From an uncultured archaeon (GTDB taxonomy: Archaea > Thermoplasmatota > Penumbrarchaeia > JASLWR01), in assembly GCA_964342815.1 (NCBI GenBank), contig CAYFHS010000014.1:56232-111255 (forward strand): a DNA stretch of 55,024 bases. Reading direction: 5' to 3'. The first letter of the stretch is position 1, and each line of letters opens with the position of its first letter. Below the pieces are notes generated by a model that worked only from the letters and a program-made list of their open reading frames with translations, searched no databases and was not told where the DNA came from. Below are positions 21,985-55,024 of the stretch, one piece after another. The position numbers and the translations under genes were made by a program.

Positions 21985-22058
21985 GGGCCCGTAGATCAGC
22001 CTGGAAGATCGCCTGCTTTGCAAGCAGGAGGCCTCGGGTTCAAATCCCGACGGGTCCA
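21985..22058 (+). tRNA. tRNA-Ala(TGC)
   Basis: Full cloverleaf GGGCCCG...CGGGTCCA with G3-U70, anticodon loop TT-TGC-AA, TTCAAAT T-loop. Confidence 0.97.
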
Positions 22059-38207: not shown

Positions 38208-41200
38208 ATGACGCCCTTTAAAGGAAAGGAATTTGTGGTATTAGTTTCAGTGCTATTATGCCTCCCGGTTCTCGGTCTTACCGTACAAGATGGTAATGAT
38301 GAATCGTTAAAAAGGACTTGCACCACAAATCCTGTTGTTTGGCCCGATGGGGACCGGTTTCTCGATTCCCAAGAGCGGTCCAGTGTTGATCATGATTGGC
38401 CAGTATTTGGAAAGGATATGGGGCACACTCATTACCAGCCCACGGTAACGAGAGGTATCGGTGATGTAAAAGTAAAATGGGATAGGGATATTGACGTTCT
38501 CTCTTGGGCAACGGTGGTAGGTGATTTTTCAGCCAATATTATCGGTCCTGCACCCACAGGTCGTCAACACGTTGTGTACACTACTGGAAGTTATCTGTAT
38601 GTGGTCGACGGAGCCACAGGAGAAGATATGTGGATTATGAATATAGAGGCTATCAATGAGAGTTCTCTGGGTGATATAGTTAGCGCAGCCCCGGCAATTG
38701 AAGATTTCGATAAGAATGGTAAAATGGAAATCGCCATAGTAACGGACAATAATATACTCGGGGAAGGGGCTCTATATGTTTTTGAACCCAACATCACTTA
38801 CAATGATTCCGCTTATCACTGGAATGAAGAAAATCAAATTCTGGAAAAAAGATTTGAATATCCCTACAATGGAAATACAGGCGAGTCCTCGCCTGTAATA
38901 GGAGATATAAACAATGACGGTCGTGAAGACCTTTTGCTGACAATGGGGATGCACCTCATTGCCCTAGACATATACAATCAAAAGGTTATTTATGATTACG
39001 ATCGGCTGGAGGGAAATCGTGTAAGCCCACCCGTGTTGTTCCCCTATACACCGAATGACCTGCGATCCGTTATCACAAGCCGGGATGGCTCTACATTGAA
39101 CATATACATGGTAGACCATAATGGGAACACTGCATGGAATCGATCGATCCCAATCTCTTCGATACCCTCAAACGGACCTGTGACTTTTCTACCGTCCCCT
39201 GCCGTTGGTGAGATCAATCTGGTCCATGATGGAAATGAAATTGTGATATTGACCCCCTTTGAAAATGGTAATGGATATGTCCGACTATTCTCAAGAGACG
39301 GTGAGGAACTATGGTTATCTCCATTCAAAGCTGAAGGTCAGTTCGATTCGTCTCCGGCACTGGCCGATGTGGACGGTGACCTTCTATCGGAGATCGCTGT
39401 TGTCTCCTGGAGAGCTGCTCTGTTTCCCAACCGCCTCGAATCGCATGCATACCTGCTTGATAACGGTGGTTCAATGATATGGGAATTTATAAAGAACGAG
39501 ACCGCGACAGTCGAGGCAACTGTGGCATCCCCAATATTCACTCATATCAACCTAGACGAGCCTGCCGATATGGTTTTTGCCACAACTAATACTATTATAG
39601 CTATTGATGGTGGCCGAGGTGAAAGTTTGTGGCAGATCGCCCCCCAGAGCGGAGTTATATCTTCCTCACCTGCTGCTGGGGAGTTCGACGATGACAACTT
39701 CCTAGATATTACATTAGAGGGATTCGTATTATCTAACAAGGAAGTAGACCTTACACTAAACAGTACGGATATCACTTTCACCGATACCACGATATATGAT
39801 GGTGTCGAGGTTGGCGTAATCGCCATAATTCACAATTTGGGCGAGGACGAAGCCGGGAAAGTGGAGGTAAGGTTCTACGAAGAGACGAAATTGATTGGAA
39901 ACGATACCTTGGATTCCATCCCCGAGGGGGACTCTAGACAGGCCACCGTAGGATGGATTCCCGGTGAGAAGGGTGAAAAAGAGATCACTATTATCGTGGA
40001 TTTTGACAACAATATCTCTGAAACAGATGAAGAAAACAACAGAGTAAGTGTCACAGTCGATGTCCATGAAGCACTGCCGGACCTGAAGATCATGAAAGTG
40101 GATCTGAAAAGGGGTGATGGGATAATCGTTGATAACGAAAATACGCATATCGTTGCGGGAGAGGATTCTTTAATTAACGTAACAATAGAGAACCCCGGAT
40201 TGAAAAAGGCTGCGGGATGCAATCTCTTTATTAAGGTGGACGATAACGTAATAATCGATCGTAATAACTTGGGCTCCTTTGAGCCAGGACAGATAAGATT
40301 TGCCGAGATAGCCCATCGGTTCGAGGAGGGAGAATCCGGTCTGAACGTTACCGTAGATCCCGACGATATCATTAAAGAAATGAACAATTCCAATAATTAT
40401 TTTAATGAGCTGTTGACGATAATAGATGATGATCCCGGGGAAGCATCATATACCATTGAAGGTTATGTTCACAAGAGCGACCTAACAACCGCCCCCGGTG
40501 CAAGCATAAGAGTGCTGAACGTCGAAACCACCGAAGAACTCATCACAGCATCAGATTCGTCTGGCAGATATTATGTCAACCTCGCCGACCTTGACCATGG
40601 GTATTCCGAAGGTGACGAGATTAAGTTGTTTGCCGCTTTGGGTAACGAAAGTGATATCATTACGATTTTCGCATACTCGGAAGATAAAGGAATCATAAGG
40701 ACAATCATTCTCGAACAAGGAACTTCAAATATTTTCAGTCTGGCATTTCGAGATTCTTCCGATATCACAGTACCCCCGGGGAAATCATCGGTTTTCGTCA
40801 TACACGTAATAAATGAGATAGACGAAAGAAATGTTATAGAATTCGACGAAGTAGAGATTCGAGATAATAACGATACTAAACTCTGGTGGACCGCCGTATT
40901 ATCCGAGGATACCGTATCCCTCGAGGCAAAGACCACTTATGAGATCACATTGCTTGTAGAGGTCCCCGACGATGATAATCTGGTTGGGACGGTGGCAGAG
41001 GTGACAATTGCAGGCAGTCCTGAAAATGAACCCGGTATGAAACAAACCTTGACTGCTGTGCTACGAATCAACGTATCCACTGGTTTTATTCTAACGCCAA
41101 AAGAGACTAACAGATCACTGATGACACCATCGAAGACTACGGAGACATTTTTTCAATACAATATAATTAATTCTGGCGAAATGGAAGATTCATTTGCGGT

Positions 41201-42566
41201 AACGGTAAAAGTGAGTCCGAATCTAGATAAAGAGTACCATCGATATTTCACTCTAGGTGCTGGAGAAATCTCCCTTCGGAACATTACTCTCGAAGTAATG
41301 ACAACAAGTTCTGGCACCTACGAGGTTTCTCTTGAAGTGGTCTCTAACTCTACGGGGATCGAAAAAGAATTATTATTCATTCTACAGGTGGGTAATCCCG
41401 AACTGAGCATTTCAGGGGGAGATATCAACATTGCACCAACGGATCCACAGCTGGATGACGAGATAATAATATCGATATTGGTGTACAATAACGGCACCTT
41501 CGATGCACCCGAATTTCGGGTTAAGCTGGAAGAGTTGAACACTGGAGAAATTGGCGTACTTGAAAAGACAGCTAACCCAATCGATAGAGATACCCAGAGC
41601 CTAATAAATTTCAAAGTCAACTTTACGGCATATGCACTATACGAATTCCAGGTTACTCTGGACCCCACGAGGGAAATATCCGAATCCGATAGGGAAGATA
41701 ATAAAGCCACAAGGGAATTCGACCTTCGGCCCGATCTGGTCATAGAGGAAATATTGCTAGTAGCTTTGCCGGATTCGAACGATAATCTCACATCCGTTGT
41801 TAAGGGTGAAGGGGCCTATTTGAAGGTTGTTCTTTCGAACCGTGGTAACATTGATGTCGTCATTCCCTTCATAATCAAAATATATGATTCCACCTCTTTT
41901 AACGAGAAAGTATATGCCACTCACCTGATAGAAGATGTTATCAGAGTGGGAGAGAGTGAAGAATACTCGATAAAACTCGATTTCCACGAGGCTGAAAGCG
42001 GAGAACGTACCATCGAAATCGAGTTGGATTCCACGGAGAACATCACTGAGTCCGAAGAGGATAACAATCAGATCTCCATAACTATAATGATTGAAGATGA
42101 GGGTGTAGAGACGTCGGCTTCATTAAGCAGCACTGAAAAATTATACATACTCCTAGGTGCAGGTGTTATTTTGATCGTCCTTTTTATATTCGTTAGATGG
42201 CGGAAAAGAATAACTGTTTCATCCCCCGAAGAGGCAAATGAACCGATAATAGTGGAGGCCATTGCTGTTGAGCCCATTGATGAGGAAGTGGAAATACCTG
42301 AAGAGAAAAGGGTCGACCCAAAAAAGAAAAGAAAGAGGTCAATCCAAGAACTGGTTTCACAGCTTGAAAAGACCATAGACGAGGAGGAACCGGAAAAGGA
42401 AAAAGATGAGGATGGAAAATCCATTAACATAAAAGAAGTAGGAAATGGGCCCATCGACCAGGAGTTCTCGGACATTCTGGATATAGATGAAATGGAGGAT
42501 GAAGCTGAGTCAAAGGAGGATTTTATTGATACTCTGCGGGGGGAGATGAGCAGTATGAAGCTGTAG
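38208..42566 (+). CDS. 1452-aa surface protein: FG-GAP/PQQ-like propeller, several CARDB domains, TM, acidic tail
   Basis: SSPVIGDINNDG / SSPALADVDGD repeats; PDL..., I.ETDEENN CARDB motifs repeated four times; C-terminal TM. Confidence 0.85.
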   Translation: MTPFKGKEFVVLVSVLLCLPVLGLTVQDGNDESLKRTCTTNPVVWPDGDRFLDSQERSSVDHDWPVFGKDMGHTHYQPTVTRGIGDVKVKWDRDIDVLSWATVVGDFSANIIGPAPTGRQHVVYTTGSYLYVVDGATGEDMWIMNIEAINESSLGDIVSAAPAIEDFDKNGKMEIAIVTDNNILGEGALYVFEPNITYNDSAYHWNEENQILEKRFEYPYNGNTGESSPVIGDINNDGREDLLLTMGMHLIALDIYNQKVIYDYDRLEGNRVSPPVLFPYTPNDLRSVITSRDGSTLNIYMVDHNGNTAWNRSIPISSIPSNGPVTFLPSPAVGEINLVHDGNEIVILTPFENGNGYVRLFSRDGEELWLSPFKAEGQFDSSPALADVDGDLLSEIAVVSWRAALFPNRLESHAYLLDNGGSMIWEFIKNETATVEATVASPIFTHINLDEPADMVFATTNTIIAIDGGRGESLWQIAPQSGVISSSPAAGEFDDDNFLDITLEGFVLSNKEVDLTLNSTDITFTDTTIYDGVEVGVIAIIHNLGEDEAGKVEVRFYEETKLIGNDTLDSIPEGDSRQATVGWIPGEKGEKEITIIVDFDNNISETDEENNRVSVTVDVHEALPDLKIMKVDLKRGDGIIVDNENTHIVAGEDSLINVTIENPGLKKAAGCNLFIKVDDNVIIDRNNLGSFEPGQIRFAEIAHRFEEGESGLNVTVDPDDIIKEMNNSNNYFNELLTIIDDDPGEASYTIEGYVHKSDLTTAPGASIRVLNVETTEELITASDSSGRYYVNLADLDHGYSEGDEIKLFAALGNESDIITIFAYSEDKGIIRTIILEQGTSNIFSLAFRDSSDITVPPGKSSVFVIHVINEIDERNVIEFDEVEIRDNNDTKLWWTAVLSEDTVSLEAKTTYEITLLVEVPDDDNLVGTVAEVTIAGSPENEPGMKQTLTAVLRINVSTGFILTPKETNRSLMTPSKTTETFFQYNIINSGEMEDSFAVTVKVSPNLDKEYHRYFTLGAGEISLRNITLEVMTTSSGTYEVSLEVVSNSTGIEKELLFILQVGNPELSISGGDINIAPTDPQLDDEIIISILVYNNGTFDAPEFRVKLEELNTGEIGVLEKTANPIDRDTQSLINFKVNFTAYALYEFQVTLDPTREISESDREDNKATREFDLRPDLVIEEILLVALPDSNDNLTSVVKGEGAYLKVVLSNRGNIDVVIPFIIKIYDSTSFNEKVYATHLIEDVIRVGESEEYSIKLDFHEAESGERTIEIELDSTENITESEEDNNQISITIMIEDEGVETSASLSSTEKLYILLGAGVILIVLFIFVRWRKRITVSSPEEANEPIIVEAIAVEPIDEEVEIPEEKRVDPKKKRKRSIQELVSQLEKTIDEEEPEKEKDEDGKSINIKEVGNGPIDQEFSDILDIDEMEDEAESKEDFIDTLRGEMSSMKL

Positions 42567-42698: not shown

Positions 42699-44156
42699 TT
42701 ATCTAGTTACAGTATTGATCAGCCCCAGTATTCCACCAATAAAAAGGATTATACCTATGATTATACCTACAATCGCCATCTGTCTTCCTTTATATTGAAG
42801 AGGTTCCTTATCGATCTTACGCATGGAAATAGCGTTAAAGTACATCCCTGCTATACCAAATAAGATACCAAAAATCACAATTCCCACAATACTGACAGGA
42901 CGAGGAATGAGTCTGGAGACCACGAAAATAGAAACTGCAATTACGCCTACGATAGACAAAATAAAAGTGATAAGTGCCAAACTATAGATTTTTTGTTGAT
43001 GATCTGGAGATGATGATGGAGATGACGATGAAACAGCAGCGGGCTCATCAACTCTAATAGTTTTCTCAGTCGGGTTTGATAAATGATCCTGTGAAATCGG
43101 TGAAACAGCCGTGGTCTTTTCTGCACTTATGGTTTTCTTCTGCAGAGTCGATATATCAATGGAATCCTGTACGAGGCTCTGAGTAATTTCAGGATATTCT
43201 GCAATAGTTTTTGGACCCGAATCGGGCTGCAGATCCGGAAAACGGATTATTTTCTTTTCACTTATCTCCTTTAACTTGTACAACATTACATCTGTACCCC
43301 AACGATCTTCTTTTCGTTTTTTTAGCGCTCCCATGATCACTTCGTCCAGTTCCTCGGGTACTTCGGGATTTAGTGCACTTGGTTGTTCGGGTTGATCCAT
43401 AAGGACTTTCCCCATACAATCGGCAATGTCCTCCCCTTTAAAAGGATTTTTTCCGGTAACCATCTTGTAAAACATCACACCTATCTGGAAGATATCCGTC
43501 TGCCAATCTACATTACCATACTCTCGTTTATTGAATTGTTCCGGTGCACTGTGGGAAAGTGTTCCTTTAAAATCCCTGGATCCCGTTACAGATTCAGAGG
43601 CCATGAATTTTCCAATACCCCAATCGGTGATTTTCGCCACTCCTCGAGATGTGAAAAGAATGTTCTCCGACTTGATATCCCTGTGAACGGAAGCCATTTT
43701 ATGTGCATATGAAAGACCCTCCAGAACCTGTACCATTATTTGGACAGACTCCCCGACCGTCAGATCATGCTTTTTCATTAACTGTTTAAGACTGCCTCCC
43801 TCCATTAATTCCATAGCCATGTGCGGTACTGGTTCAGTTTTTATACTAAAGAGTTTAACAATATTACGATTTTTTAATCTCATCCAGAGTTCACCCTCAG
43901 ATTTGAAACGGCCGATTACCTTTTCATCCATACTGATCAGGTTACCATCCGTTTTTGGGATCTTCAACGCAAGCTCCTTCCCATGCTCATCAATACCCAT
44001 ATATACATCCGCAAAGCCACCTGAACCAAGAAGATGATAGATTTGATATCCTGGTAGAAGGTCCCGTATGTTATCAGGTGCAGGTTTAGGTGGAGGGGGT
44101 GGAAGGAAGTCTCGGAACGAATCAGATTGTGCAATGGGTGAATTCATGTATTTCAT
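42699..44156 (-). CDS. Hanks-type Ser/Thr protein kinase with C-terminal membrane (DUF4190-like) domain
   Basis: LGSGGFADVY, ALKIP, HRDIKSEN, DWG, APEQ, DIFQIG; C-terminal TMs with KGRQMAIVGIIIG. Confidence 0.9.
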   Translation of the reverse strand: MKYMNSPIAQSDSFRDFLPPPPPKPAPDNIRDLLPGYQIYHLLGSGGFADVYMGIDEHGKELALKIPKTDGNLISMDEKVIGRFKSEGELWMRLKNRNIVKLFSIKTEPVPHMAMELMEGGSLKQLMKKHDLTVGESVQIMVQVLEGLSYAHKMASVHRDIKSENILFTSRGVAKITDWGIGKFMASESVTGSRDFKGTLSHSAPEQFNKREYGNVDWQTDIFQIGVMFYKMVTGKNPFKGEDIADCMGKVLMDQPEQPSALNPEVPEELDEVIMGALKKRKEDRWGTDVMLYKLKEISEKKIIRFPDLQPDSGPKTIAEYPEITQSLVQDSIDISTLQKKTISAEKTTAVSPISQDHLSNPTEKTIRVDEPAAVSSSSPSSSPDHQQKIYSLALITFILSIVGVIAVSIFVVSRLIPRPVSIVGIVIFGILFGIAGMYFNAISMRKIDKEPLQYKGRQMAIVGIIIGIILFIGGILGLINTVTR

Positions 44157-44257
44157 CGTCGGAATTATTCTGTGGATATAAAAACATTATTGAATGAAAG
44201 CTTCTGAAAGGATTTCGCAATTTCCATTCTCCATTTGTTTTGGTTTCTATCCAAAAT

Positions 44258-44356
44258 GTATAACGACCTGCGGGTATACGAAGTTCCGACCAAAGGGAGG
44301 TTATTTGGGCATAGCACGAAGAATATCGTGCGGCGCCGAGAACTCGTTAGTTAGGC
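44258..44356. repeat. attC-like site A (terminal, most degenerate)
   Basis: GTATAAC...GTTAGGC, 99 bp, internal GCACGA-AGAATA-TCGTGC hairpin. Confidence 0.75.
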
Positions 44357-44574
44357 GAGGGTGAAGTCCTCCCACAAGCGCAGAGTGGGGTACGTGGGTG
44401 TTGAATTTCCAATATCCTCTCTTTTTTTTCAGATTTTTTATCTGTCATCCGCTTCTATATCTTCCACTCGACTATGAAACATTCGAAGTTGGACAAAGGT
44501 TAATAATATCCCCTCCAATCAATTAATTAACTTGGCCATTCGTGGTATAATAATATACGTTCCAGAATCAGTCT

Positions 44575-45024
44575 TTAGTTTCGATCAACACTGGATAAAA
44601 TCTCCAGATCGGCCTCGTCCTGTTTCCGCGTTGATGCCTGTTTATTTTTAACCAATTCCCGTATCCCAATAAAATAAACCTTCTCGTTTCCATAAATTCC
44701 GAGCTTTTTACCATTCCATACCTCTTTAAACATGCAACCATCAATTGAAGTAAGAATGTCCACTCTTACCGGTTCATATCCCAGCTGAACAATTTTACCA
44801 ATTTGGCTAAAATCCTCCTCCGATAGATTCAAGCATTCAAATCCAAATTCGTTGAGGGCTTCCACAATACCCTTTCCGTTTTCAATACTTGGTTCTACGA
44901 AGATGGTCATATCTTTTGTATATCGGGGGATGGCATGAAAGGCAACTGCATAGGCACCAATAATACAGTATTTTACATCATATTTATTGAATAACCTTAA
45001 CAACTCTTCGAAGTCCTTTTCCAC
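44575..45024 (-). CDS. nucleotidyltransferase-fold protein (cassette 1)
   Basis: IIGAYAVAFHAIPRYTKD, VDILTSIDG, NKQASTRKQDEADLE. Confidence 0.8.
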   Translation of the reverse strand: MEKDFEELLRLFNKYDVKYCIIGAYAVAFHAIPRYTKDMTIFVEPSIENGKGIVEALNEFGFECLNLSEEDFSQIGKIVQLGYEPVRVDILTSIDGCMFKEVWNGKKLGIYGNEKVYFIGIRELVKNKQASTRKQDEADLEILSSVDRN

Positions 45025-45181
45025 TCTCGCTTTTATCCCCCTTTTTCATTTTATCATATGATTCTCTTAAAAACTGAAACGTATCTAATCTCATTGTCTT
45101 ACCCATAAATAAATAATAATCCTGATCAAATCTTTTAGCGGCTTCAAATGTGTCTGTCTTATGTATCCAAATTTTTGCCAT
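44984..45181 (-). CDS. small partner protein upstream of the nucleotidyltransferase (TA-like pair)
   Basis: 65 aa overlapping the NT start; FE.A...D..YY....RL....FLR...LRRV.KV pattern typical of such partner genes. Confidence 0.65.
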   Translation of the reverse strand: MAKIWIHKTDTFEAAKRFDQDYYLFMGKTMRLDTFQFLRESYDKMKKGDKSESGKGLRRVVKVIQ

Positions 45182-45624
45182 TTTGCTTGAAACCCCCGCT
45201 TTATTTCTATAAACTCTTTTTCAATCGGAAGCGATTTTTCTATCACTACGGCATTTCTGAAAGTCACACAATGCCCCAATCACCTCTAAATCAAAATCTA
45301 CTAATCTCCTCACTTATCACCTGTTGGATTTATCTTCTGTTTTTGCATATTTGTGTTGCATTCCTTCATTGAAGTACGCAGATAAATATTTTTTCTGTGA
45401 TTGTACAAAAATAATCTTCCACATTTCGCAATCATAGGAAAATTATTCACCAAGCGAGCATCAATACTCGTCTTTTCAAGTAACATGTTTGCATGATGAG
45501 TTTCATAGTCGATTAAATTGAACACACTATTCATTCCTAAGAAGCAGATACAGCTTTACATTCCCATTATAGGATATGGGAAATTCAACTTTGGTGGGAC
45601 GGTGTGGGGCGAGTGCCACATTTC

Positions 45625-45747
45625 GCCTAACGTCTTGCCAATTTCCGAACTTCCGATGGGGGGAACAACACCTATGAGATCGCCATTGGTGGGGTGGGAA
45701 GTTGCAGCGGAGCCGACAAGCGAGAGCCTGAAACTCGTTAGTTATAC
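45625..45747. repeat. attC-like site B
   Basis: GCCTAAC...GTTATAC, 123 bp, GAACTTCC/GGAAGTT inner stem. Confidence 0.85.
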
Positions 45748-46328
45748 GAGCCCGCTAGGGCCAAGAATTTGCGGGTGGTTTCGGGGGTTATTTAAGGGAA
45801 AATTCGCAGTTATCGGAGTCGACCGAAAACGCCTTTAGTGCATAGTTTTTTCCGTTTTGAATAAACGGAGAAGATTTCACATATCGACCGTTATGTGAAA
45901 CCCCATGTTTCATCGTTCCTTCCTCTCCTTGTTGGTCCGATATACGAAACACCAAATGGCGAATTTTTCGGTCTTGCCCTACGGTAGTAAAAAATCCCCT
46001 GTGAGCGTATTTTTCTACATGAAGAAAGGAATGAGGAAAATTCGATTAACGTGATCTCATCGTGTTATACTGCCTCGTTACAAGGCGAGGCATGGATTTA
46101 TAAAACGAAGTGGAAGAAATCCGCAATGTTTAAATGAACTTTTTGTATTTTGGGGGAAGTATAGGGACTTATTTATACTTCTTTGATTCTCAAAACTTGA
46201 CTGACTTTTCCTTGATTGAAATCCTTATCTTCCCATAATGGTTTGCTCATTGGCTACAACTCTGGCTCATTATCTTATCCATCAAGCATAATTTGTATTC
46301 CAAACGCAATTATAATAGGAAGAGTTAT

Positions 46329-46357
46329 TTACTACTTAGTAAATTACTACACAGTAA
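46329..46357 (+). promoter_or_regulatory. tandem palindromic operator TTACT-N4-AGTAA x2
   Basis: TTACTACTTAGTAA 46329-46342 and TTACTACACAGTAA 46344-46357 directly before ATG 46360. Confidence 0.6.
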
Positions 46358-46359
46358 AT

Positions 46360-47730
46360 ATGTTTTCAGACAGAAAAGTTGAGCTAAAAGCACTCAAGGA
46401 CTATTACAAGATGGCTTCCAAAAGAAGTCAATTACTGGTGATTTACGGCAGGCGGCGCGTGGGTAAGACTACACTTGTAAAGGAGTTTTTAAAGGAGGTC
46501 AAAGGAGTTTACATTTTCATTGAGCCAAAGAGCGAAGAACTAATCTTGAAGGATTGTGAGGATGTATTTGGGAAAATAATAGGACGCACCCCTCGTTTAG
46601 ATTCCTGGGAAACACTATTTAATGTGGCCCTATCTGAAAAACTGACGCTCGTACTTGACGAGTTTCAGAACCTGGGTGTGGTAAATCCTCACCTTTTCTC
46701 AAAAATCCAAAAGATATGGGATGAGATTGGGTCTGAACCAGGTTTGCTTTTTATCACAATCGGATCTTATGTAGGTATGATAAAGAAAATATTCAGGGAT
46801 GGAAAACAACCGCTTTTTGGTAGGGCATCAGGAATGATGAGGTTAGACCCATTTGATATTTTCGCCACAACCGAATTCCTAATGAGCGAAGGAATGAGTT
46901 TTGAACAATGTTTAAGGGGATATGCTATAGTCGGTGGCGTACCCCGATATTTAGTTGAACTTGGGCTTAAAGGCGACAATATCGAGAGACTTTTTTTTGA
47001 TTCGACATCACCATTGAGGGAAGAGGGTATTAATATTCTCGCTTTAGAATTCGGTTCACGACACAAGGGATATTTTTCAGTACTTGAAAGTGTGAGTAAA
47101 GGTAAGTCCACTCCAAAAGAGATTGCCGATTATGCCGGAATGAAAATTGCAACAGTATCAAAATATCTTGGAGAACTCTCAGATGAATATGAGATGGTAA
47201 TGGCCGAACGTCCCGTGACCACAACAAAGAAACGATTCGTTAGATATCGTATTAAGGACAATTTCTTCGATTTCTGGTTTAGGTACGTGTACTCAAAAGC
47301 CTCCTTAATTGAAATCGATCCAGAGGGGGTATTAGTTGATACACTGAAACAATTACCTCAGTACATCTCTATAAAGATGGAATATGTAATAAAAAATATT
47401 ATCATTAAGAAGAAGCCAATCTTTCCGCCAACAGCTATAGGCCGATGGTGGGACCGGAAAGGAGAGGAAATTGATGTTGTTGCAATCGATGAGAAGAGCT
47501 CTAGAATACTATTCGTTGAGATAAAATGGCGAAAAAAATCGGTAGGCTGGAATCTTGTCGAAGAACTGAAACGTAAATCACAACTGGTCCAGTGGAGAAG
47601 ATACAATAGGAAAGAAACACTATTATTCGTATCGAAACAAGGTTTCACAAAAAGTTGTCTTAAAAGAATGGATTCCGAAGGAATACTTCACTGGGATCTT
47701 AAGGATGTGGAAAAGCTAATACTGAGTTAG
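46360..47730 (+). CDS. archaeal-type AAA ATPase + wHTH + DUF234/PD-(D/E)XK nuclease domain (cassette 2, inverted)
   Basis: F.DR..EL, YGRRRVGKT, LDEFQNL, GGVPRYL, DNFFDFWFRY, EIDVV..ILFVEIKW. Confidence 0.9.
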   Translation: MFSDRKVELKALKDYYKMASKRSQLLVIYGRRRVGKTTLVKEFLKEVKGVYIFIEPKSEELILKDCEDVFGKIIGRTPRLDSWETLFNVALSEKLTLVLDEFQNLGVVNPHLFSKIQKIWDEIGSEPGLLFITIGSYVGMIKKIFRDGKQPLFGRASGMMRLDPFDIFATTEFLMSEGMSFEQCLRGYAIVGGVPRYLVELGLKGDNIERLFFDSTSPLREEGINILALEFGSRHKGYFSVLESVSKGKSTPKEIADYAGMKIATVSKYLGELSDEYEMVMAERPVTTTKKRFVRYRIKDNFFDFWFRYVYSKASLIEIDPEGVLVDTLKQLPQYISIKMEYVIKNIIIKKKPIFPPTAIGRWWDRKGEEIDVVAIDEKSSRILFVEIKWRKKSVGWNLVEELKRKSQLVQWRRYNRKETLLFVSKQGFTKSCLKRMDSEGILHWDLKDVEKLILS

Positions 47731-47873
47731 AACTTCAAGTTAATCAGTGTTATGTGTTGTTTTTCTTTATGCTCTACGGGGTGGGGTTGAAGAAAAAAAG
47801 TTCATTTTATTTACACGTTAATCGAAGTTCACAGGGGATTTTGCGTTAAACTGTAGGGCGATTCCGATATTTC

Positions 47874-47974
47874 GTATAACGACTGGCAGGTTCACGAAGT
47901 TTTCGACCGAAGGGAGAGAATTTGGGCGGAGCACGAAGGAATATCGTGTGTAGCCTTGAACCTGTTAGTTATAC
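47874..47974. repeat. attC-like site C
   Basis: GTATAAC-GAC-TGGCAGGTTCA...TGAACCTGTTA-GTTATAC, 101 bp. Confidence 0.88.
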
Positions 47975-48400
47975 GTGTCCGAAAGGACCGAGCACCGCAG
48001 ACCCGGAGGGTCGAGGAGCGCAGAGTATCAGAATCGTTCGGGATTCAGTTCTGACCGTCTTTTTTCCAGCTGGCGATGTCAACGGAAAAAGTTTGGCTTC
48101 TGCCGTGAACAGAGGGTTATGCGAGGTTATGGAAACGCAGATTTCCGTAATTTCTACTCTTTCCCTTTTTTTTTCCTATTCACGAAATGTCAGCACGTTA
48201 AGAATCCCGAATGGAAATGTTGTGGATTGAGGAAAATGGTGTATGGTGGAGGCCCGAAGAACCGGAGCCCATGCCGACTGGAGAGAGGCAGCATATTTTG
48301 ATAATTTCACCTCAATCCGACATTTCCACATGGAGAGTTTTTTCATCGACAAGAGGGGCGTCAGTCCCTTCTTGGACATATAGTAATAATGTTGATCGCC

Positions 48401-48658
48401 CTAAAGTTCTTTTTCATAGATATTCTTCCGATGCCCTATTGCCACTATCCAAAGTTGCTCTCTTTCTCTTCTCCAATCAATTATTGCCCTATAATCACCA
48501 ATACGCAGACTGAAATAGATAGAGCCTTTTAGGGGTTTTAAAAAGTGATCGGGCCACTCCTTCATTGTTTTCATTTTGGCGACAATCCGTTTTCGGATTT
48601 CTTTATCCAAATTTGAGAATTGGCCCAAAGCCGGATCTGTGAAGAGTACCTCAGTCAT
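48401..48658 (-). CDS. RelE/ParE-family toxin (cassette 3)
   Basis: LDKEIRKRI..K, LKG..YFSLRIGDYRAI, AIGHRKNIY; start overlaps the antitoxin stop (ATGACTGA). Confidence 0.9.
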   Translation of the reverse strand: MTEVLFTDPALGQFSNLDKEIRKRIVAKMKTMKEWPDHFLKPLKGSIYFSLRIGDYRAIIDWRREREQLWIVAIGHRKNIYEKEL

Positions 48659-48890
48659 AGAGGTCCTTCTCCACTTCTTCCAACGTTTTTCCTTTTCCAC
48701 TTTTTACCTGCTGTTTTCCAGCTTCTATCACTTTCAATGTTTCCTTGGACAATCGACTTTCATCTTCGATAAGATGTCGGATTGCATCGCGTACCATCTC
48801 ACTTTTGTTCATGTAGTAAGGGTGTATATCAAGGAAATCGTTGATTTTGGTTTCCATCCCTTCAGATATCTTGACATTGATCGAAGTCAT
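48651..48890 (-). CDS. ribbon-helix-helix antitoxin (cassette 3)
   Basis: TSINVKIS, YMNKSEMVRDAIRHL RHH motif; upstream of and overlapping the toxin. Confidence 0.88.
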   Translation of the reverse strand: MTSINVKISEGMETKINDFLDIHPYYMNKSEMVRDAIRHLIEDESRLSKETLKVIEAGKQQVKSGKGKTLEEVEKDLYD

Positions 48891-48899
48891 TTTATCACC

Positions 48900-48932
48900 A
48901 TGGTAATACTATGGTAAAACACAATATATAAG
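48900..48932 (-). promoter_or_regulatory. TATA box and operator of the RelBE-like cassette
   Basis: Minus-strand CTTATATA at 48925-48932; ATGGTAA repeated 11 bp apart (48900, 48911); GGTGA SD. Confidence 0.6.
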
Positions 48933-49108
48933 TGCATCGGTAAAAATCTCACTTTTAAGGCACTCTTATTCATTATTTCCCATAAGACCGCTTTAATGAT
49001 AATAATCTTCGAAATGGAAGGGAGTGATTGATCCTCAACAATCAATCGTAACGAGCTTGATGTTGATAAACTCCTATTATAAAACTCTCCGGGCGATTAT
49101 GGTATTAC

Positions 49109-49228
49109 GTATAACGTCTTGCCAATTTCCGAACTTCCGATGGGGGGAACCGGTCAATGATTACAGCATTGGCGGGGTAGGAGTTGGGCGGAGGCGTCAG
49201 CCGAGAGCCGTGAACTTGTTAGTTATGC
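49109..49228. repeat. attC-like site D
   Basis: GTATAAC...GTTATGC, 120 bp; left arm nearly identical to site B. Confidence 0.85.
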
Positions 49229-49498
49229 GAGCCCGCTAGGGCCAAGGAGGACCGAAGGTCCGACGCAGTTTTTCGTCACCGACGAAAAATCGTTTTGGGG
49301 CGGAATTTTCCAACATCCACTTGGAAAAGTTATTAAATCCCATAGGTTATACGAAGATTTGAGTTCGTATCTCTTCTCTCTTGGTCGGATTTAAGAAGTC
49401 CCAAAACGGTAATTTTTCTGTCTTTACCTATTGTAGTAAGAACCTATTCAGTTGCTCATATTATTGTACCAGAACCCAAACCATAAAATGAAACTTCT

Positions 49499-49885
49499 TT
49501 AATCACCTAAATAAATAACATTTTCTAGACCCTTGAAATGGGAATCTCCGGTTACCACTATTCCACCATATTTCTTTTGAAATGCGATAATTAACGAATC
49601 GATCATTCCAAAATGTTTACGAGTTTTTCTCATATCATGCCTAATCTTAGCAGCATCCACCCAATCTTCGATATGAATGGAGTGTATTTCGGAATTAGCT
49701 CGAACAATAGTATATGACTCTTCGAAATCGGATCCCTGCCGCAAGCAATACCCTTTTAATTCTGCGATATTACATTCAAGTGTTATTATCGTATCATCTT
49801 GTTCTTCGACGATCCTATTAACGATCTCACCTTTATCAGAGCCAATGAAGTACTCAATCCAGGCATATGTATCAAAAATGAACAT
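49499..49885 (-). CDS. PIN-domain toxin, VapC-like (cassette 4)
   Basis: FIFDTYAWIEY, AEL, GMIDSLIIA, VTGDSHF; GGTGA SD before ATG 49885. Confidence 0.92.
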   Translation of the reverse strand: MFIFDTYAWIEYFIGSDKGEIVNRIVEEQDDTIITLECNIAELKGYCLRQGSDFEESYTIVRANSEIHSIHIEDWVDAAKIRHDMRKTRKHFGMIDSLIIAFQKKYGGIVVTGDSHFKGLENVIYLGD

Positions 49886-49889
49886 AAAT

Positions 49890-50099
49890 TCACCACAAGT
49901 TTTCGTGCTCATCATCATCTTCTCGAATAAAAGCTGGTTTTCCCTTGAATATACCAAAACCACTGATATGTTCCTTCTTTTTGATATCGATATCTAATTT
50001 ATCATGCTCCGTTATACCCATATCTAGAGCACTCTGTCTAGGGAGGATAATTCCTAGTGAATTCCCCCACTTCTTTACCTCTACAGTTATATGTGTCAT
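49890..50099 (-). CDS. AbrB/MazE-family antitoxin, VapB-like (cassette 4)
   Basis: VEVKKWGNSLGIILP motif; upstream TTTAAATA and GGTGA. Confidence 0.9.
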   Translation of the reverse strand: MTHITVEVKKWGNSLGIILPRQSALDMGITEHDKLDIDIKKKEHISGFGIFKGKPAFIREDDDEHENLW

Positions 50100-50275
50100 C
50101 ACTTTCACCTATTATGTATATGTACTTCTTAATATTTAAAAGTTATACTCATACGTCTAACTTTTCGGCATGAATGATTCGTTTCTTAAAGGGTTCTGGT
50201 ACATATCTTTTCACAGATTTCTTGACTTTCTGCATTAGGGTTTTTACGTAAAACAATAGGCGGTGACGAAATTTC

Positions 50276-50374
50276 GCATAACGTGTAGCAGGTTCCCGAA
50301 GTTCCCCTGAGTATAACGAAGGGGAATTTGGGCGGAGGCCGATAGGCCGAGAGCCGGGAACCTGCTAGTTATAC
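50276..50374. repeat. attC-like site E
   Basis: GCATAAC-GTG-TAGCAGGTTCCCG...CGGGAACCTGCTA-GTTATAC (perfect 13-bp stem), 99 bp. Confidence 0.9.
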
Positions 50375-50705
50375 GAGCCCGTTAGGGCCAAGGATTTTAC
50401 GGAATAGAATGGAGTAAAATCTGCCGTTTATCAGAATCGTCCGTAGGGATGAAAATTTATTGTGATTGTGCTTTCGCACATGAAACACTTCCCCCGGAAA
50501 TTTCAATTTACGTCTTAGCGCGCTAGCTAGACAAGCGCAATCTTAAGAGCAAAGTCACATTTCTTTACGCAGAAGGGCAGATTGATATTTCTCTACAGCC
50601 TCAATTTATACTTTCGATATATATTATCCATAGTAATGCTACCGACTCATATATATTGTTCCCGCACCGAGTGAAAACACTGTCGGAGTATAATGATGCC
50701 GGACC

Positions 50706-51860
50706 TCACTTTGAACTTTCGACCTTTCTTTTAAGTAGGAGGGATATCCCAACTGCTCCGATAAATAATATCAACTGGAACCCTGGGGTCTTACTTGTCT
50801 CCTCACTGAAATAGATTCTCTCAATATCGCTTGATCCTTGGTTTCCTACCGCTTGTATTAGAATACTTTCTACTTGTATCGTCGTGTTGGTATCCGATTT
50901 CGGGGCATAAATGGTAATATAGAATTTAACAGTTCCACCTTTCTCAATATGCCTAATTCGGGGTGTTATATTAATCTCCAGGTTCGAATCTTCAAGGATT
51001 ACGATATGAACGTTAGTTACGGACACATATTGACATGTTACCTCGATCGGGATTGTCCTACTCTCTCCCGGTTTTATTGCTCCCACATTTTCTACTTCGG
51101 GGGATATTACCAGAATATGAGCATTTTTTCCCTCTCCTTTTTGCCATCGATCAGGATCATAAGGATAATAATCATCCTCATTTGGAACCCCATCTCCATC
51201 TATATCCGGGTCAGTTAAATCAGGAATTCCGTCTTTATCACGGTCAGTGGTCGGAAAGGAGGTCCTATCAAGAGGGTCTGTGGATTCTATATATTCATCC
51301 AAATTTGTATAACCATCTCCATCACTATCAGCTTTTGCGTCACTTGAATCCTCTGGATCTAGACCATACTTGAGTTCCCAATCATCAGGCATACCATCCC
51401 CATCGGAATCCATGTCAATATTTGATTTTATTGATCCCATCGGTGCAAAAACAGTTAAATGTGATAAATTTCCCCATACATAGTTCTTTTGAATGTCCAC
51501 CCCCGTGTTTGTTAATTCACTCCATTTCGAGCCAGCCCAATAAAATAATCTCATACTGGATTCATCCATCCCGCTAGGAATATCACTATCGGAGTAAGGT
51601 ATCTGGATATAAATCCATTTGAAACCATCTGCTATGATTTCAACAAATATGCCAATATTTCTCATGTCTGCTGGATCATCACCTGGACTCGGACATTCAT
51701 TAATACTAACATTACTAGGTTCCAAGGTGCACACTTTAACAGAAATTCCAGTATCAGGATCCGTAAATGTTTCGATAGTATTTTCTCCAATAACATCTGT
51801 AGATGGAAAAATAAATGTCAGTAACGTTATCAAAATTATCGTACATGTCTTCCAATTCAT
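50706..51860 (-). CDS. secreted Ca-binding (DxDGDG/TSP3-like) surface protein with PGF-CTERM-like sorting signal (cassette 5)
   Basis: Signal peptide; DSDGDGMPDDWELKYGLDP repeats; C-terminus TPGF + TM + KRK. Confidence 0.82.
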   Translation of the reverse strand: MNWKTCTIILITLLTFIFPSTDVIGENTIETFTDPDTGISVKVCTLEPSNVSINECPSPGDDPADMRNIGIFVEIIADGFKWIYIQIPYSDSDIPSGMDESSMRLFYWAGSKWSELTNTGVDIQKNYVWGNLSHLTVFAPMGSIKSNIDMDSDGDGMPDDWELKYGLDPEDSSDAKADSDGDGYTNLDEYIESTDPLDRTSFPTTDRDKDGIPDLTDPDIDGDGVPNEDDYYPYDPDRWQKGEGKNAHILVISPEVENVGAIKPGESRTIPIEVTCQYVSVTNVHIVILEDSNLEINITPRIRHIEKGGTVKFYITIYAPKSDTNTTIQVESILIQAVGNQGSSDIERIYFSEETSKTPGFQLILFIGAVGISLLLKRKVESSK

Positions 51861-52200
51861 ATTATCACCCCGAGAGATGGCATTCCAGTATATAATAGAA
51901 TTTTGGTACAACTATACAAATGTAGATTTCCCGTTGAAACATGGTCTTACTCGTAACGGTTTCTTCATGGAAAGCAGTCTCCCCAGGAGACCTAAATAGT
52001 AATATTCAAAATAATCAAGGTTTTAGAGAGTATTTTGATTTTGATAACTGCCCTCCTGCGTACCTCTTCATATACCAAGCCTTTTAGCGTATAACCCCAG
52101 AATCTAGTGACTTTGCTCTAATCTCACCCAAATTCTTCGTTAATTGAGGGGAAGATACTCCAAATTTTCAACATTCCCCTACGGGCGATTTTGATATTTC

Positions 52201-52322
52201 GTATAACGACTGGCGGGTTCACGAACTCCGTCGGGGGGAACCTTCCAATGATTTCAGGGTTGGTGGGGTAGGAGTTGCAGTGGAGGCCGACAGGCCGAGA
52301 ACCGTGAACCCGTTAGTTAGGC
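52201..52322. repeat. attC-like site F
   Basis: GTATAAC-GAC-TGGCGGGTTCACG...CGTGAACCCGTTA-GTTAGGC, 122 bp. Confidence 0.9.
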
Positions 52323-52850
52323 GAGTCCGCTAGGACCGAGGAGCACCGCAGGTGCGACGAAGGGCTGCGGACTCGTCCAGAATTTAGTTTACCTGCCCGT
52401 AGTTTCCCTGATGGCGAAGTCATGGGGAAATTTGCGAAACTGATGTGCAGTTTCCGTGAATCGTTAGGTTATGCGAAGTGAAGAATAATCCGCTAATTAT
52501 TCGTAACTTTATCTTCTTTTTCTCCCTTTCCGATTCACGAAGGGCTAAACGTATAAATTCTGGATGATAATGCTGTTTCGGGATGAAAGGCACATTGAAC
52601 TTCAGATCACAATGATGCCGTCAAAAATGGCCGTTGGTTGGTTCAATCGCCCGAAGGGTGATTTACGAGGCATGAAGTGCCGAAGTCAGCAGGCACGAAG
52701 TAACTGCTATCCCAACCCCTGCCATTGATTCATCCGATACTGCATTGTCACCTGAAGGAGATTGTTGAATATTCCGCCGTAAACATGTGGTCAAATCATT
52801 GGATTGACCATTATACTGATTTCCAGGAGGCTTATTTTTCATTTATGAAT

Positions 52851-53204
52851 CTACCTTTTCTTGTACCCAAATTTTTTATTGTAATCTTTGTGATCAATTA
52901 TATCCAATACAAAGGCGATTATTTCAATAACGGTTTCCCCATCAGTTAATGTATACAACATTCTCCAGTAATTCGATAAACTCACTCGAAATAGATTCGT
53001 TACCCCATATTTCTCCATATATTCTTGAGGAATTAGCTTTTTTGAAAGAGGGTCACCATAATGAGGATTTGCCTTTATCAATTCTACTTTCTTGTTTATC
53101 GAATTCAATATTGATTTCTCAATTTTAGATTCTGATGAGTGCTTATTTAGGTATTTGTAGACCTCCTCAGCGTCTTCAGATAATATTACCCGCACCATTT
53201 TCAT
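52851..53204 (-). CDS. RelE-like toxin (cassette 6)
   Basis: VRVILSEDA, L..NPHYG, LFRVSLSNYWRMLYT, DHKDYNKKFGY; overlaps the upstream gene stop. Confidence 0.72.
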   Translation of the reverse strand: MKMVRVILSEDAEEVYKYLNKHSSESKIEKSILNSINKKVELIKANPHYGDPLSKKLIPQEYMEKYGVTNLFRVSLSNYWRMLYTLTDGETVIEIIAFVLDIIDHKDYNKKFGYKKR

Positions 53205-53491
53205 AGTTCAAGCCCCATTGCAATTGCTTTTCTAATGTTTGGATTTGAATTAAATATCCAAGTAATACCATCTACTGTTACCACTATTTTATTACTCTGT
53301 TCAAGATATCGCAATATTGTTTTCAATTTATTATGATTTACCTTTTTAGGAAGGCGCCTTTTCAATTCTGCAATTGTGATCACACTCTCCTCAATATTTC
53401 TAAGGACATCTTCTACCATTATCACTGTGTTCAATGTTGGAGAATGCTCAAGTCTATGTTCATATACATTATTCGCCATTATTGCTTCCAT
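53201..53491 (-). CDS. winged-helix putative antitoxin (cassette 6)
   Basis: SPTLNTVIMVE, ELKRRLPKKVNHNKLKTILRYLEQSNKI; GGTGA SD; 4-bp overlap with the toxin. Confidence 0.72.
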   Translation of the reverse strand: MEAIMANNVYEHRLEHSPTLNTVIMVEDVLRNIEESVITIAELKRRLPKKVNHNKLKTILRYLEQSNKIVVTVDGITWIFNSNPNIRKAIAMGLEL

Positions 53492-53850
53492 CTTATCACC
53501 ATCTGATACAGAATAGTATCAATAATGTACACATCAGTATTAATACATTTCTATTGAATTGTCATTAGATTAAGTATTAGCCCTCCTGGAAATCTTCTAC
53601 AATTACTGTTCGTATCCAAAACCTTGTACTCTCCTGTTTTCGGTGAATGTAGCGTTTAACGGGTACGTTAGACGACATAGGCAATCCAATGATTTAGGAA
53701 AATTATATGTGCAAATAGTTCCACTATTAGGAAGTTGGGCAGGCGGGGATGGGGAATTGGAGGAAGCCCAACGAACAATGCACATGGTGGGGCGGTTTTA
53801 CGGCATAAAAGGAATATTTCGACAATCTTCAAAGGCGAGTACGCAATTTC

Positions 53851-53975
53851 GCATAACGTCTCGCCGGTTTCCGAACTTCCGACGGGGGGATCAACACCTT
53901 TAACATCTCCATTGGTGGGTAAGGAAGTTGCAGCGGAGGCCGACAGGCCGAGAGCCTGAAACCGGCCAGTTATAC
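53851..53975. repeat. attC-like site G
   Basis: GCATAAC-GTCTC-GCCGGTTTC...GAAACCGGC-CA-GTTATAC, 125 bp. Confidence 0.9.
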
Positions 53976-54285
53976 GAGGGCGCTAGCCCCGAGTACCGAA
54001 GGAGGCGAAGTCTCCGAGGAACGCAAGTTTATCAGAATCGCCGAAAAATGCTTTTGGGACGTAGCTTTCCGTTGGCGAATGCAGCAGGAAAATTTCGGAA
54101 ACCGTGCTTTATGCGGAACGAAGTTTCACCCCCTCCTTTTTCATCTTGGTCCGGTTTCCGAAGTACCGAAGGGGTAATTTTTCGGTCTTGCCCTATGGTA
54201 GCCGAAAGTTACTTTATGAACCACAAAGTACAAAGAGACCAGAAGATGAATATCCATACCGATGTATGGAATTCCCAAATACCAA

Positions 54286-54966
54286 TTACTTCTTTGGCGG
54301 AAAAAGAGCATTTTTTATCTTGGCCTTGCCCTCCTCGTAATGAAATCTTTTTTCTATTAACCAATCATTATTTCTCTCAATTGAAATGTTATCATATTCT
54401 TTCTTTTTTTCTAAAATATAATTATTGATTTTTTCCAATTCGTCTTTTGATCCTAATGCCGCTTCATCAATGGTTATATCTTCATCGTTTGCCATGACGG
54501 TTAAAGAGTAAGTATAACCCATTCGCGTATGTCCCGATGAGACAATTTCCTTAACATAGGCCGCATGTGAGATTTCAGACCAAAGCGCATCAAACTTCTT
54601 TTTCTTTCCAACCCAATACTGAAATCTTGTGTTATCTAACATTACCTTTCGGATTCTCAGTGTGAAAGGCATGAGAATTGCTCCTATAATAAAAAGAGCG
54701 ATCCCAATTAAAATCCACCATAATTGATAACCCAACCGCCCTTCTATTCCGACAAACAATGCCATAAGTCCAAAAAGGCATAGAGAGGACGCCCCAACTA
54801 CATATGCCCATGGTCTTTTAGATATGATAAGTGGTTTGGATACAATGCAAATTCCTCCTAACTTTTTACTGAATATTGCCATATTAATTATGGATTTTAT
54901 CTCTAACCTATAACATTTATTAAAATCTTCTGGCCTCGCTTTCATACAATCTCTTCGTTTATTCAA
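54286..54966 (-). CDS. 2-TM membrane protein with C-terminal PH-like soluble region (cassette 7)
   Basis: Two hydrophobic helices then a beta-rich segment; fills the cassette; start uncertain. Confidence 0.65.
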   Translation of the reverse strand: MNKRRDCMKARPEDFNKCYRLEIKSIINMAIFSKKLGGICIVSKPLIISKRPWAYVVGASSLCLFGLMALFVGIEGRLGYQLWWILIGIALFIIGAILMPFTLRIRKVMLDNTRFQYWVGKKKKFDALWSEISHAAYVKEIVSSGHTRMGYTYSLTVMANDEDITIDEAALGSKDELEKINNYILEKKKEYDNISIERNNDWLIEKRFHYEEGKAKIKNALFPPKK

Positions 54967-54999
54967 ATGAATAAATATAACTTTCGGCGTTAACCATTG

Positions 55000-55024
55000 G
55001 GCGATTCTGATATTTCGTATAACG
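55000..55024. repeat. left end of attC-like site H (truncated by the window edge)
   Basis: GGCGATTCTGATATTTC-GTATAAC-G, same leader as sites C and F. Confidence 0.85.

Follow-up and report, generated by a model that had tools for sequence, protein, structure and literature searches.

How does an archaeon come to carry a row of unrelated small genes, parted from one another by copies of the same folded sequence, with no integrase in view? The window, a stretch of 55,024 nt from an uncultured marine archaeon (G000:C14:56232-111255), raises this question at positions 44255–55024, where seven complete attC-like hairpin sites, and an eighth cut by the end of the window and of contig C14, separate seven unrelated gene units. 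An earlier note, made from the letters alone, had read these units as an integron-like cassette array. Our analysis indicates that the window holds the distal end of an integron-like cassette platform on the chromosome, most likely run by a tyrosine recombinase encoded on contig C7 of the same genome, which by its sequence is not an IntI. The locus works like an integron while falling outside the definition of one, which turns on the integrase.

The array belongs to genome G000, which measures 4.35 Mb, is 88.9% complete and holds a full-length archaeal small-subunit ribosomal RNA gene. McrA was not found in G000, and the organism is therefore not a methanogen. We compared this genome with related archaeal genomes, among them the congener G001, the other members of its family (G000–G003) and G010, which represents another archaeal family of the same class, as well as with contigs of 0.2–1.8 kb from four other marine metagenome runs.

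Folded sites in a single orientation

Eight related sites occupy the end of the window, all at the positions that the earlier note had given for its palindromes. We built a covariance model of the site, R1, from the 20 copies found in G000. It recovers seven of the eight on the plus strand, the better-folding one, with scores of 53.6–132.5 bits (E values of 4e-11 to 7e-31): the terminal site A at 44255–44358 (53.6 bits, E 4e-11), B at 45622–45749 (125.8 bits), C at 47871–47976 (75.5 bits), D at 49106–49230 (113.1 bits), E at 50273–50376 (94.8 bits; fold of -27.8 kcal/mol), F at 52198–52324 (116.8 bits) and G at 53848–53977 (132.5 bits). Site H (55014–55024, plus strand) is the one cut by the end of C14. 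R1 finds no copy in the first 44 kb of the window. A pattern for the left box matches seven times in the window, six times at array sites and once as a stray at 12974, against a mean of 0.11 matches in shuffled windows, none of which reached seven in 100 shuffles. A generic hairpin scan (NNNNAAC...GTTNNNN, combined with fold energy) gave too much noise where loci are GC-rich and overlooked one known copy, and we dropped it as a statistic. Rfam returned no attC family; its only match across the window and contigs C7, C69 and C65 is a tRNA gene at window positions 21985–22058.

The copies share one fold. Their ends read TCGYMTAAC ... GTTAKRCGA, and the 20-copy alignment divides each site into a 9-bp R box (TCGYATAAC/GTTATRCGA), an internal loop, a 10-bp L box and a branched, variable top. 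The cores GYATAAC and GTTATRC fit the integron consensus RYYYAAC/GTTRRRY at six of seven positions each. In the L box pairing is kept and sequence is not, with compensatory changes in 6 of the 10 pairs. Over all copies, 90.3% of cells pair in the proposed structure, as opposed to 22–45% when the partners are slid by 1–3 columns.

The plus strand behaves as the bottom strand of an attC site, as the earlier note had proposed. It is G-rich (749 G versus 498 C over the 20 copies) and gains 46 G-T pairs on folding, where 14 are available to the minus strand only. It folds more stably in 17 of 20 copies, with a mean of -19.1 versus -16.6 kcal/mol. On this strand the internal loop is asymmetric: the 5' arm contributes 5 nt and the 3' arm 2 nt.

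The conserved element extends well past the hairpin. The hairpins of 99–125 bp described earlier are real, but they are only the core of a larger unit, in which about 20 nt to the left (GGGCGATT..GATATTTCG) and 60–250 nt to the right are conserved as well. Each cassette carries 200–350 nt of conserved non-coding sequence between its open reading frame (ORF) and its attC, for example at 45750–46215, 49231–49498, 52325–52850 and 53978–54285, and the same holds on C69. This spacer includes small GC hairpins, a second R-like box in degenerate form and, enclosing the attC, an outer inverted repeat (GGCGATTCTGATA / TATCAGAATCGCC).

The array continues beyond the window. Assembly contigs of G000 share 55-nt overlaps, and the end of C14 matches the start of contig C69 by exactly such an overlap, with copy H becoming the first of four C69 sites. 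The array therefore comprises at least 11 tandem sites. Contigs from marine metagenomes of other studies (runs X4 and X6) contain the same C14/C69 junction. Across G000, seven of the 20 copies lie on C14, four on C69, one on C7, two on C2 and one each on C42, C18, C4, C47, C68 and C1; C7 additionally holds one partial copy. The 12 copies on the array contigs C14, C69 and C7 all share one orientation relative to the cassette genes.

A recombinase outside the IntI clade

A tyrosine recombinase lies at what would be the head of the array. The earlier note had placed the missing enzyme beyond position 55024 or elsewhere in the genome, and the best match in G000 to the integron-integrase model is a 391-aa tyrosine recombinase 3.3 kb from the end of C7 (G000:C7:140389-141561), coded on the cassette strand. 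From this gene the plus strand of C7 runs through a Schlafen/AlbA_2-HATPase_c_4 gene, an attC of the same family (72.8 bits), a PIN_2 toxin–antitoxin pair and the partial attC to the contig end. All these elements lie on one strand, in the orientation predicted for the head of the window array, and we infer that C69 joins C7.

The partial copy on C7 has a counterpart on C65. Both break off after one arm into unrelated AT-rich sequence (L005:9880-10000, which is G000:C7:144633-144753, and L031:2013-2192 on C65), as though something had inserted into the site. We considered a group II intron as the cause; Rfam finds none at either place.

The C7 enzyme is an active-site-complete tyrosine recombinase that lacks the hallmark of IntI. 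Its catalytic residues R219, K244, H310, R313, H336 and Y345 (RKHRH-Y) are invariant in 42 sequences, and it matches PF00589 at 142.5 bits. Against the IntI model TIGR02249 it scores 203 bits, under the cut-off of 265, in a match split into positions 5–168 and 234–314 that skips 169–233. Where VchIntIA has 70 residues (171–240), the C7 recombinase has 29. The IntI-specific insertion, the additional domain near patch III, is missing from it and from all eight homologues sampled, which is why, judged by sequence, the protein is not an IntI. The earlier note had allowed for IntI or another tyrosine recombinase, and the second option prevails.

The remainder of the protein has affinities to both IntI and XerA. 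Its best fold matches are 2a3v, an IntI structure, and then XerA; its C terminus carries the IntI-like motif SPLD; and it passes the XerA model NF040815 narrowly, at 222.4 versus 220 bits. The plain two-domain build of XerA (about 270–300 aa) is not its own. Its N-terminal 95 or so residues form a conserved alpha/beta domain (beta-beta-alpha-beta-beta-alpha-beta) for which Pfam has no family, Atlas feature matches stay below 0.9 and single-sequence folding is poor (predicted local distance difference test, 62.8). A tree, whose deep branching order is not resolved, sets the family off as its own clade from IntI1, a second plasmid-borne IntI, the short XerA of the same archaeal class and an IS91-associated recombinase. 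Within the clade, bacterial members intermingle with archaeal ones.

A candidate attI follows the recombinase gene. About 110 nt past the stop codon lies a dif-like site of 11-6-11 layout, AGTCGGCAATA-GGGGAG-TTATGCGTAAT, whose right arm recurs as the R' arm in all the attC sites. Past the stop codon, G000, G001 and a 76%-identical relative (L057) share about 130 nt of conserved sequence, up to GGGAGTTATRCGWAAT; beyond that point the sequences are unrelated. Conservation among these orthologous loci ends exactly at G|TTATRCG, and the same core closes each attC. Such a break is the pattern expected of an insertion site that has received different first cassettes. G010 has GTTAGGCGAAAT in its attI box and in its attC box alike, and attI and attC therefore change together between genomes.

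Compact palindromes related to this attI are scattered through G000, at about ten further places. Those at C4:14809-14900, C42:17920-17980 and C68:4300-4365 are about 66 nt long, consist of two attI-like half sites set back to back (CGYATAAC-TCCCC-...-GGGGA-GTTATRCG) and each lie about 1 kb from a solitary attC. On C4, C42, C68 and C47 the attI-like palindrome is 0.85–1.7 kb from the attC and in the expected orientation, so that these loci read as solitary cassettes.

The same arrangement recurs in other lineages. Full-length homologues of the recombinase occur in six related archaeal genomes, in all six at contig ends, and the attC family itself is present in G001 (15 matches) and G003 (9 matches). 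G010 repeats the order of recombinase gene, attI-like box, one cassette and attC (68.9 bits). The protein family is large and spans Bacteria and Archaea. A homologue in Latescibacteria heads a co-directional run of acetyltransferase, cupin and SDR genes separated by RYYYAAC...GTTRRRY hairpins. Downstream of another, on a bacterial contig of 781 kb, lie 14 copies of a 155-nt repeat (GYCTAAC...GTTAGRC) amid many small toxin–antitoxin genes, with no copy of that repeat upstream of the recombinase gene on the contig. At a Clostridia-like locus (L064) and a Persicobacter locus (L066), runs of small genes come after the recombinase and no clear attC family was detected.

Three of these relatives have surroundings of their own. 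The member in Persicobacter sp. JZB09, a cultured bacterium of the Bacteroidota, is 363 aa long, 38.6% identical and unannotated in its record (CP012852.1:466708-487658); after its gene come small genes and 4-kb duplicated modules. A shorter relative (289 aa, 36.6% identical) on a Sinorhizobium fredii plasmid (L069, NZ_CP023072.1) lies directly upstream of an IS91-family transposase gene, and a Y2_Tnp gene sits near the homologue in L064.

Several observations weigh against the C7 recombinase as the enzyme of this array. No contig links C69 to C7, whose terminal site runs off into unrelated sequence. The 76%-identical relative has the attI, yet neither R1 nor a box scan finds an attC in the 10 kb downstream. 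The asymmetry of the internal loop falls on the arm where cleavage would take place, which seems unlike the extrahelical bases reported for canonical attC sites (MacDonald 2006; Bouvier 2009). Finally, recombinases near attC sites that lack the IntI domain have been judged not to be integron integrases (Cury et al. 2016, PMC4889954).

The missing link between C69 and C7 would suit a canonical archaeal integron, or a cluster of attC sites lacking an integron-integrase (CALIN), whose true IntI is unassembled or acts in trans and to which the Xer-like gene on C7 is a bystander. At 88.9% completeness a true intI of G000 could indeed be unassembled, archaeal integrons are mostly CALINs in fragmented metagenome-assembled genomes (Ghaly et al. 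2022, Sci Adv, PMC9668308), and the R boxes come within one position of the canonical consensus on either side. We nevertheless consider a hidden IntI quite unlikely. None of 41 related genomes, four of them carriers of the attC family, has a TIGR02249 match over the cut-off. In G010, as in two unrelated bacteria, attC sites come directly after a member of the C7 family, the attI-like break in conservation adjoins the C7 recombinase gene itself, and the cores of attI and attC agree within a genome while differing between genomes.

A second difficulty is that the C7 recombinase may be a housekeeping enzyme, since it exceeds the XerA cut-off and a search of four genomes of its family (G000–G003) turned up no Xer-class gene besides it. 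It would then be a XerA acting on a chromosomal dif, and the array a pile-up of integrative mobile elements exploiting Xer (IMEX-like, in the manner of CTX phage or pdif modules). The attI, like dif, is an inverted repeat of 11-6-11 layout, the R box TTCGCATAA is similar to GGTGCGCATAA, the XerC arm of dif in E. coli, and the single-recombinase systems XerS/difSL and XerH/difH keep dif beside the gene. In Thermococcales, on the other hand, dif sites are not beside xerA (PMC2958812). The C7 family also keeps apart in the tree from the short XerA of its own archaeal class, carries the extra N-terminal domain and, in genome G035, coexists as the long form with a short XerA. Where a XerA/dif system has one dif per chromosome, G000 has 20 attC hairpins and about ten attI-like 11-6-11 sites, the latter a number that would be hazardous for a site of dimer resolution. 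A housekeeping XerA thus strikes us as an unlikely account of the array.

Cassettes, their cargo and their neighbours

The seven units have the layout of integron cassettes. Read on the window minus strand, a cassette consists of 5'-TTATRCGAAAT, one or two genes, the conserved spacer of 200–350 nt and an attC hairpin ending in G. The polarity is gene first and attC second, because the first attC follows the first gene and the conservation of the left flank is lost at copy A. Canonical integrons have the same polarity. The ORFs and Pfam matches agree with the earlier description of seven unrelated units, six of them coded on the minus strand, with toxin–antitoxin cargo; the unit between sites B and C is the one on the plus strand.

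Counting from the distal end, cassette 1 (44359–45621, minus strand) holds ORFs at 44575–45024 (149 aa) and 45310–45534 (74 aa) that belong to no known family. Cassette 2 (45750–47870, plus strand) carries an archaeal ATPase_2/DUF234 gene at 46216–47730 (PF03008, 75 bits; PF01637, 58 bits). The remaining five are all on the minus strand. Cassette 3 (47977–49105) encodes a ParE toxin at 48401–48700 (PF05016, 28.7 bits) with an upstream partner of 79 aa at 48651–48890, and cassette 4 (49231–50272) a PIN toxin at 49499–49963 (PF01850, 38.3 bits) with a MazE/AbrB-like antitoxin at 49890–50108 (weak PF04014). Cassette 5 (50377–52197) holds a 401-aa protein at 50706–51911 whose weak TSP3-repeat matches are all below the Pfam cut-offs. 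In cassette 6 (52325–53847) a ParE-like gene at 52851–53204 is paired with a 96-aa partner at 53201–53491, and the degenerate second R box lies at 52454–52476. Cassette 7 (53978–55013) contains a 226-aa ORF at 54286–54966 of no known family; it proved unrelated to a second 226-aa cassette ORF on C69.

A Ser/Thr protein kinase gene (42699–44156, minus strand, 485 aa; Pkinase, 151.5 bits) forms the chromosomal flank at the distal end of the array. Leftward conservation at site A ends at GTATAAC, and the conserved left flank of the family is missing beside the kinase gene. The kinase gene in turn adjoins a gene for a 1452-aa CARDB/FG-GAP repeat protein (38208–42566), whose homologue in G001 is 76% identical. 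In G001 (contigs C84 and C55), the unit of kinase gene plus attC (window 42699–44358) adjoins a segment that in G000 is found on C30, and the C30 segment next to that one lies between the CARDB gene and a homologue of cassette 1, an apparent swap.

Cassette order differs between genomes. G003 has the order 6'-4 where G000 has 4-5-6-7. On G003:C193 a homologue of cassette 4, 84% identical and flanked by attC sites, has a different neighbour, following a homologue of cassette 6. The latter is without the ParE-like pair (window 52794–53553), which occurs on another G003 contig at 85% identity and apparently moves on its own. In G001, the contexts of a homologue of cassette 7 and of the unit of kinase gene plus attC are other than in G000. 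Within the marine runs, one X3 contig is identical to the window from 47876 over 1.8 kb and has, at site C, a left neighbour absent from G000; the same run also contains the G000-type junction at site C.

These differences in cassette order and context, the second neighbour of site C in X3 among them, bear out only in part the earlier description of the system as active or recently active. No excision circle, circular cassette junction or deletion joint was seen in the contigs of the four other marine runs, which are too short to bridge cassettes. All joints and most loose ends in those contigs trace to paralogous attC loci of the same genome. In G001, moreover, a cassette-1 homologue (81% identical) stands beside the CARDB gene with no attC detected alongside.

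Could the sites be structured intergenic elements, such as terminators or insulators, that spread in some other way and move no cassettes, like repetitive extragenic palindromes (REPs) or miniature inverted-repeat transposable elements (MITEs)? The lack of an excision joint would be expected of them, single copies do occur at six loci away from the array, and the conserved element, far larger than attC, is a unit of about 300–450 nt whose extra hairpins and second, degenerate box would also fit a composite repeat. The copies are, however, too few and too clustered for the genome-wide spread by which the earlier note would have been refuted: they number 20 in 4.35 Mb, and the 12 on C14, C69 and C7 are all oriented alike with respect to the cassette genes. 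Solitary copies have an attI-like partner at a distance of about 1 kb, oriented as expected, homologous cassettes in G003 have different neighbours with breakpoints at the sites, and the link to one recombinase family recurs across domains. We regard a REP- or MITE-like origin as very improbable.

A possible second kind of cassette integrase

The platform shares features with four known systems and coincides with none. Like the archaeal integrons of Ghaly et al. (PMC9668308), it has short tandem ORFs that are mostly co-oriented, folding attC sites between them and cargo rich in toxin–antitoxin genes and in proteins of no known family, and it comes from a type of genome, the fragmented metagenome-assembled genome, in which most of those integrons were found. 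In both, a putative attI comes immediately downstream of the integrase gene. Their IntIs, however, are reported to carry the additional domain; the recombinase here is without the IntI-specific domain and has an N-terminal extension instead. Sedentary chromosomal integrons, such as the Vibrio superintegron with its Vibrio cholerae repeats (VCR), likewise combine long arrays of attC sites that are homogeneous within a genome, toxin–antitoxin cassettes and a bias towards folding of the bottom strand. They differ from the present array in three respects: its recombinase lies outside the IntI clade, its sites have a 5/2-nt loop that seems unlike the canonical pattern of extrahelical bases, and each of its cassettes carries some 200–350 nt of extra conserved spacer. 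An integrase co-directional with the cassettes, as on C7, is also the mark of the 'inverted integrase' group (PMC4889954).

To Xer/dif systems the likeness is one of parts. The core of the protein is Xer-like, as in archaeal XerA (PMC2958812), with 222 bits against the XerA model, and an 11-6-11 attI lies beside its gene; but the family, distinguished by the extra N-terminal domain, forms its own clade, and its hairpins are structured sites of 100–130 nt rather than 28-bp duplexes. Taken alone, the window matches the definition of a CALIN exactly, with at least two attC-like sites less than 4 kb apart and no integrase in view (Cury et al. 2016). Unlike a CALIN, the array has a candidate integrase at its predicted end; since that gene falls outside the IntI definition, the locus would still be reported as a CALIN by standard tools.

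How might such an enzyme work? The folded single-stranded hairpin has a precedent as a substrate: IntI acts on attC, and XerCD on the folded attP of CTX phage. Modules bounded by Xer sites are also known, as the pdif modules of Acinetobacter. We infer that the C7 recombinase acts on the array sites and that it does so through a single strand. It would bind the non-coding strand, which is the plus strand of the window, in its folded form at the R and L boxes, and exchange one strand at GYATAA|C with G|TTATRC of the attI or of another attC. Replication would then resolve the product.

The wider family may share this activity. We tentatively propose, as a possibility that we hold with less assurance than the reading of the locus itself, that recombinases of the C7 type are a second, ancient family of cassette integrases common to Bacteria and Archaea, which would join folded attC sites to a dif-like attI situated just downstream of the gene that encodes them. 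Many CALINs would on this proposal be complete integrons of a second, apparently widespread type, and the IntI insertion would be dispensable for the use of structured single-stranded sites. No paper attributing attC arrays to a recombinase that lacks the IntI domain came up in our incomplete coverage of the literature.

The proposal matters because of how integrons are recognized. The integrase by which they are defined and searched for has one specific insertion; arrays lacking a gene of that kind are classed as CALINs, and CALINs outnumber complete integrons in both Bacteria and Archaea. Here, an array is tied to a recombinase without the insertion by its orientation, by a conserved attI boundary and by recurrence across four independent lineages, of which two are bacterial. 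Should the enzyme prove to recombine these sites, the definition of the integron would have to widen, and an integrase could be assigned to many CALINs. It would then become possible to test how a tyrosine recombinase recognizes a folded single strand when it has no IntI domain, and the family member of Persicobacter sp. JZB09 may offer an experimental handle.

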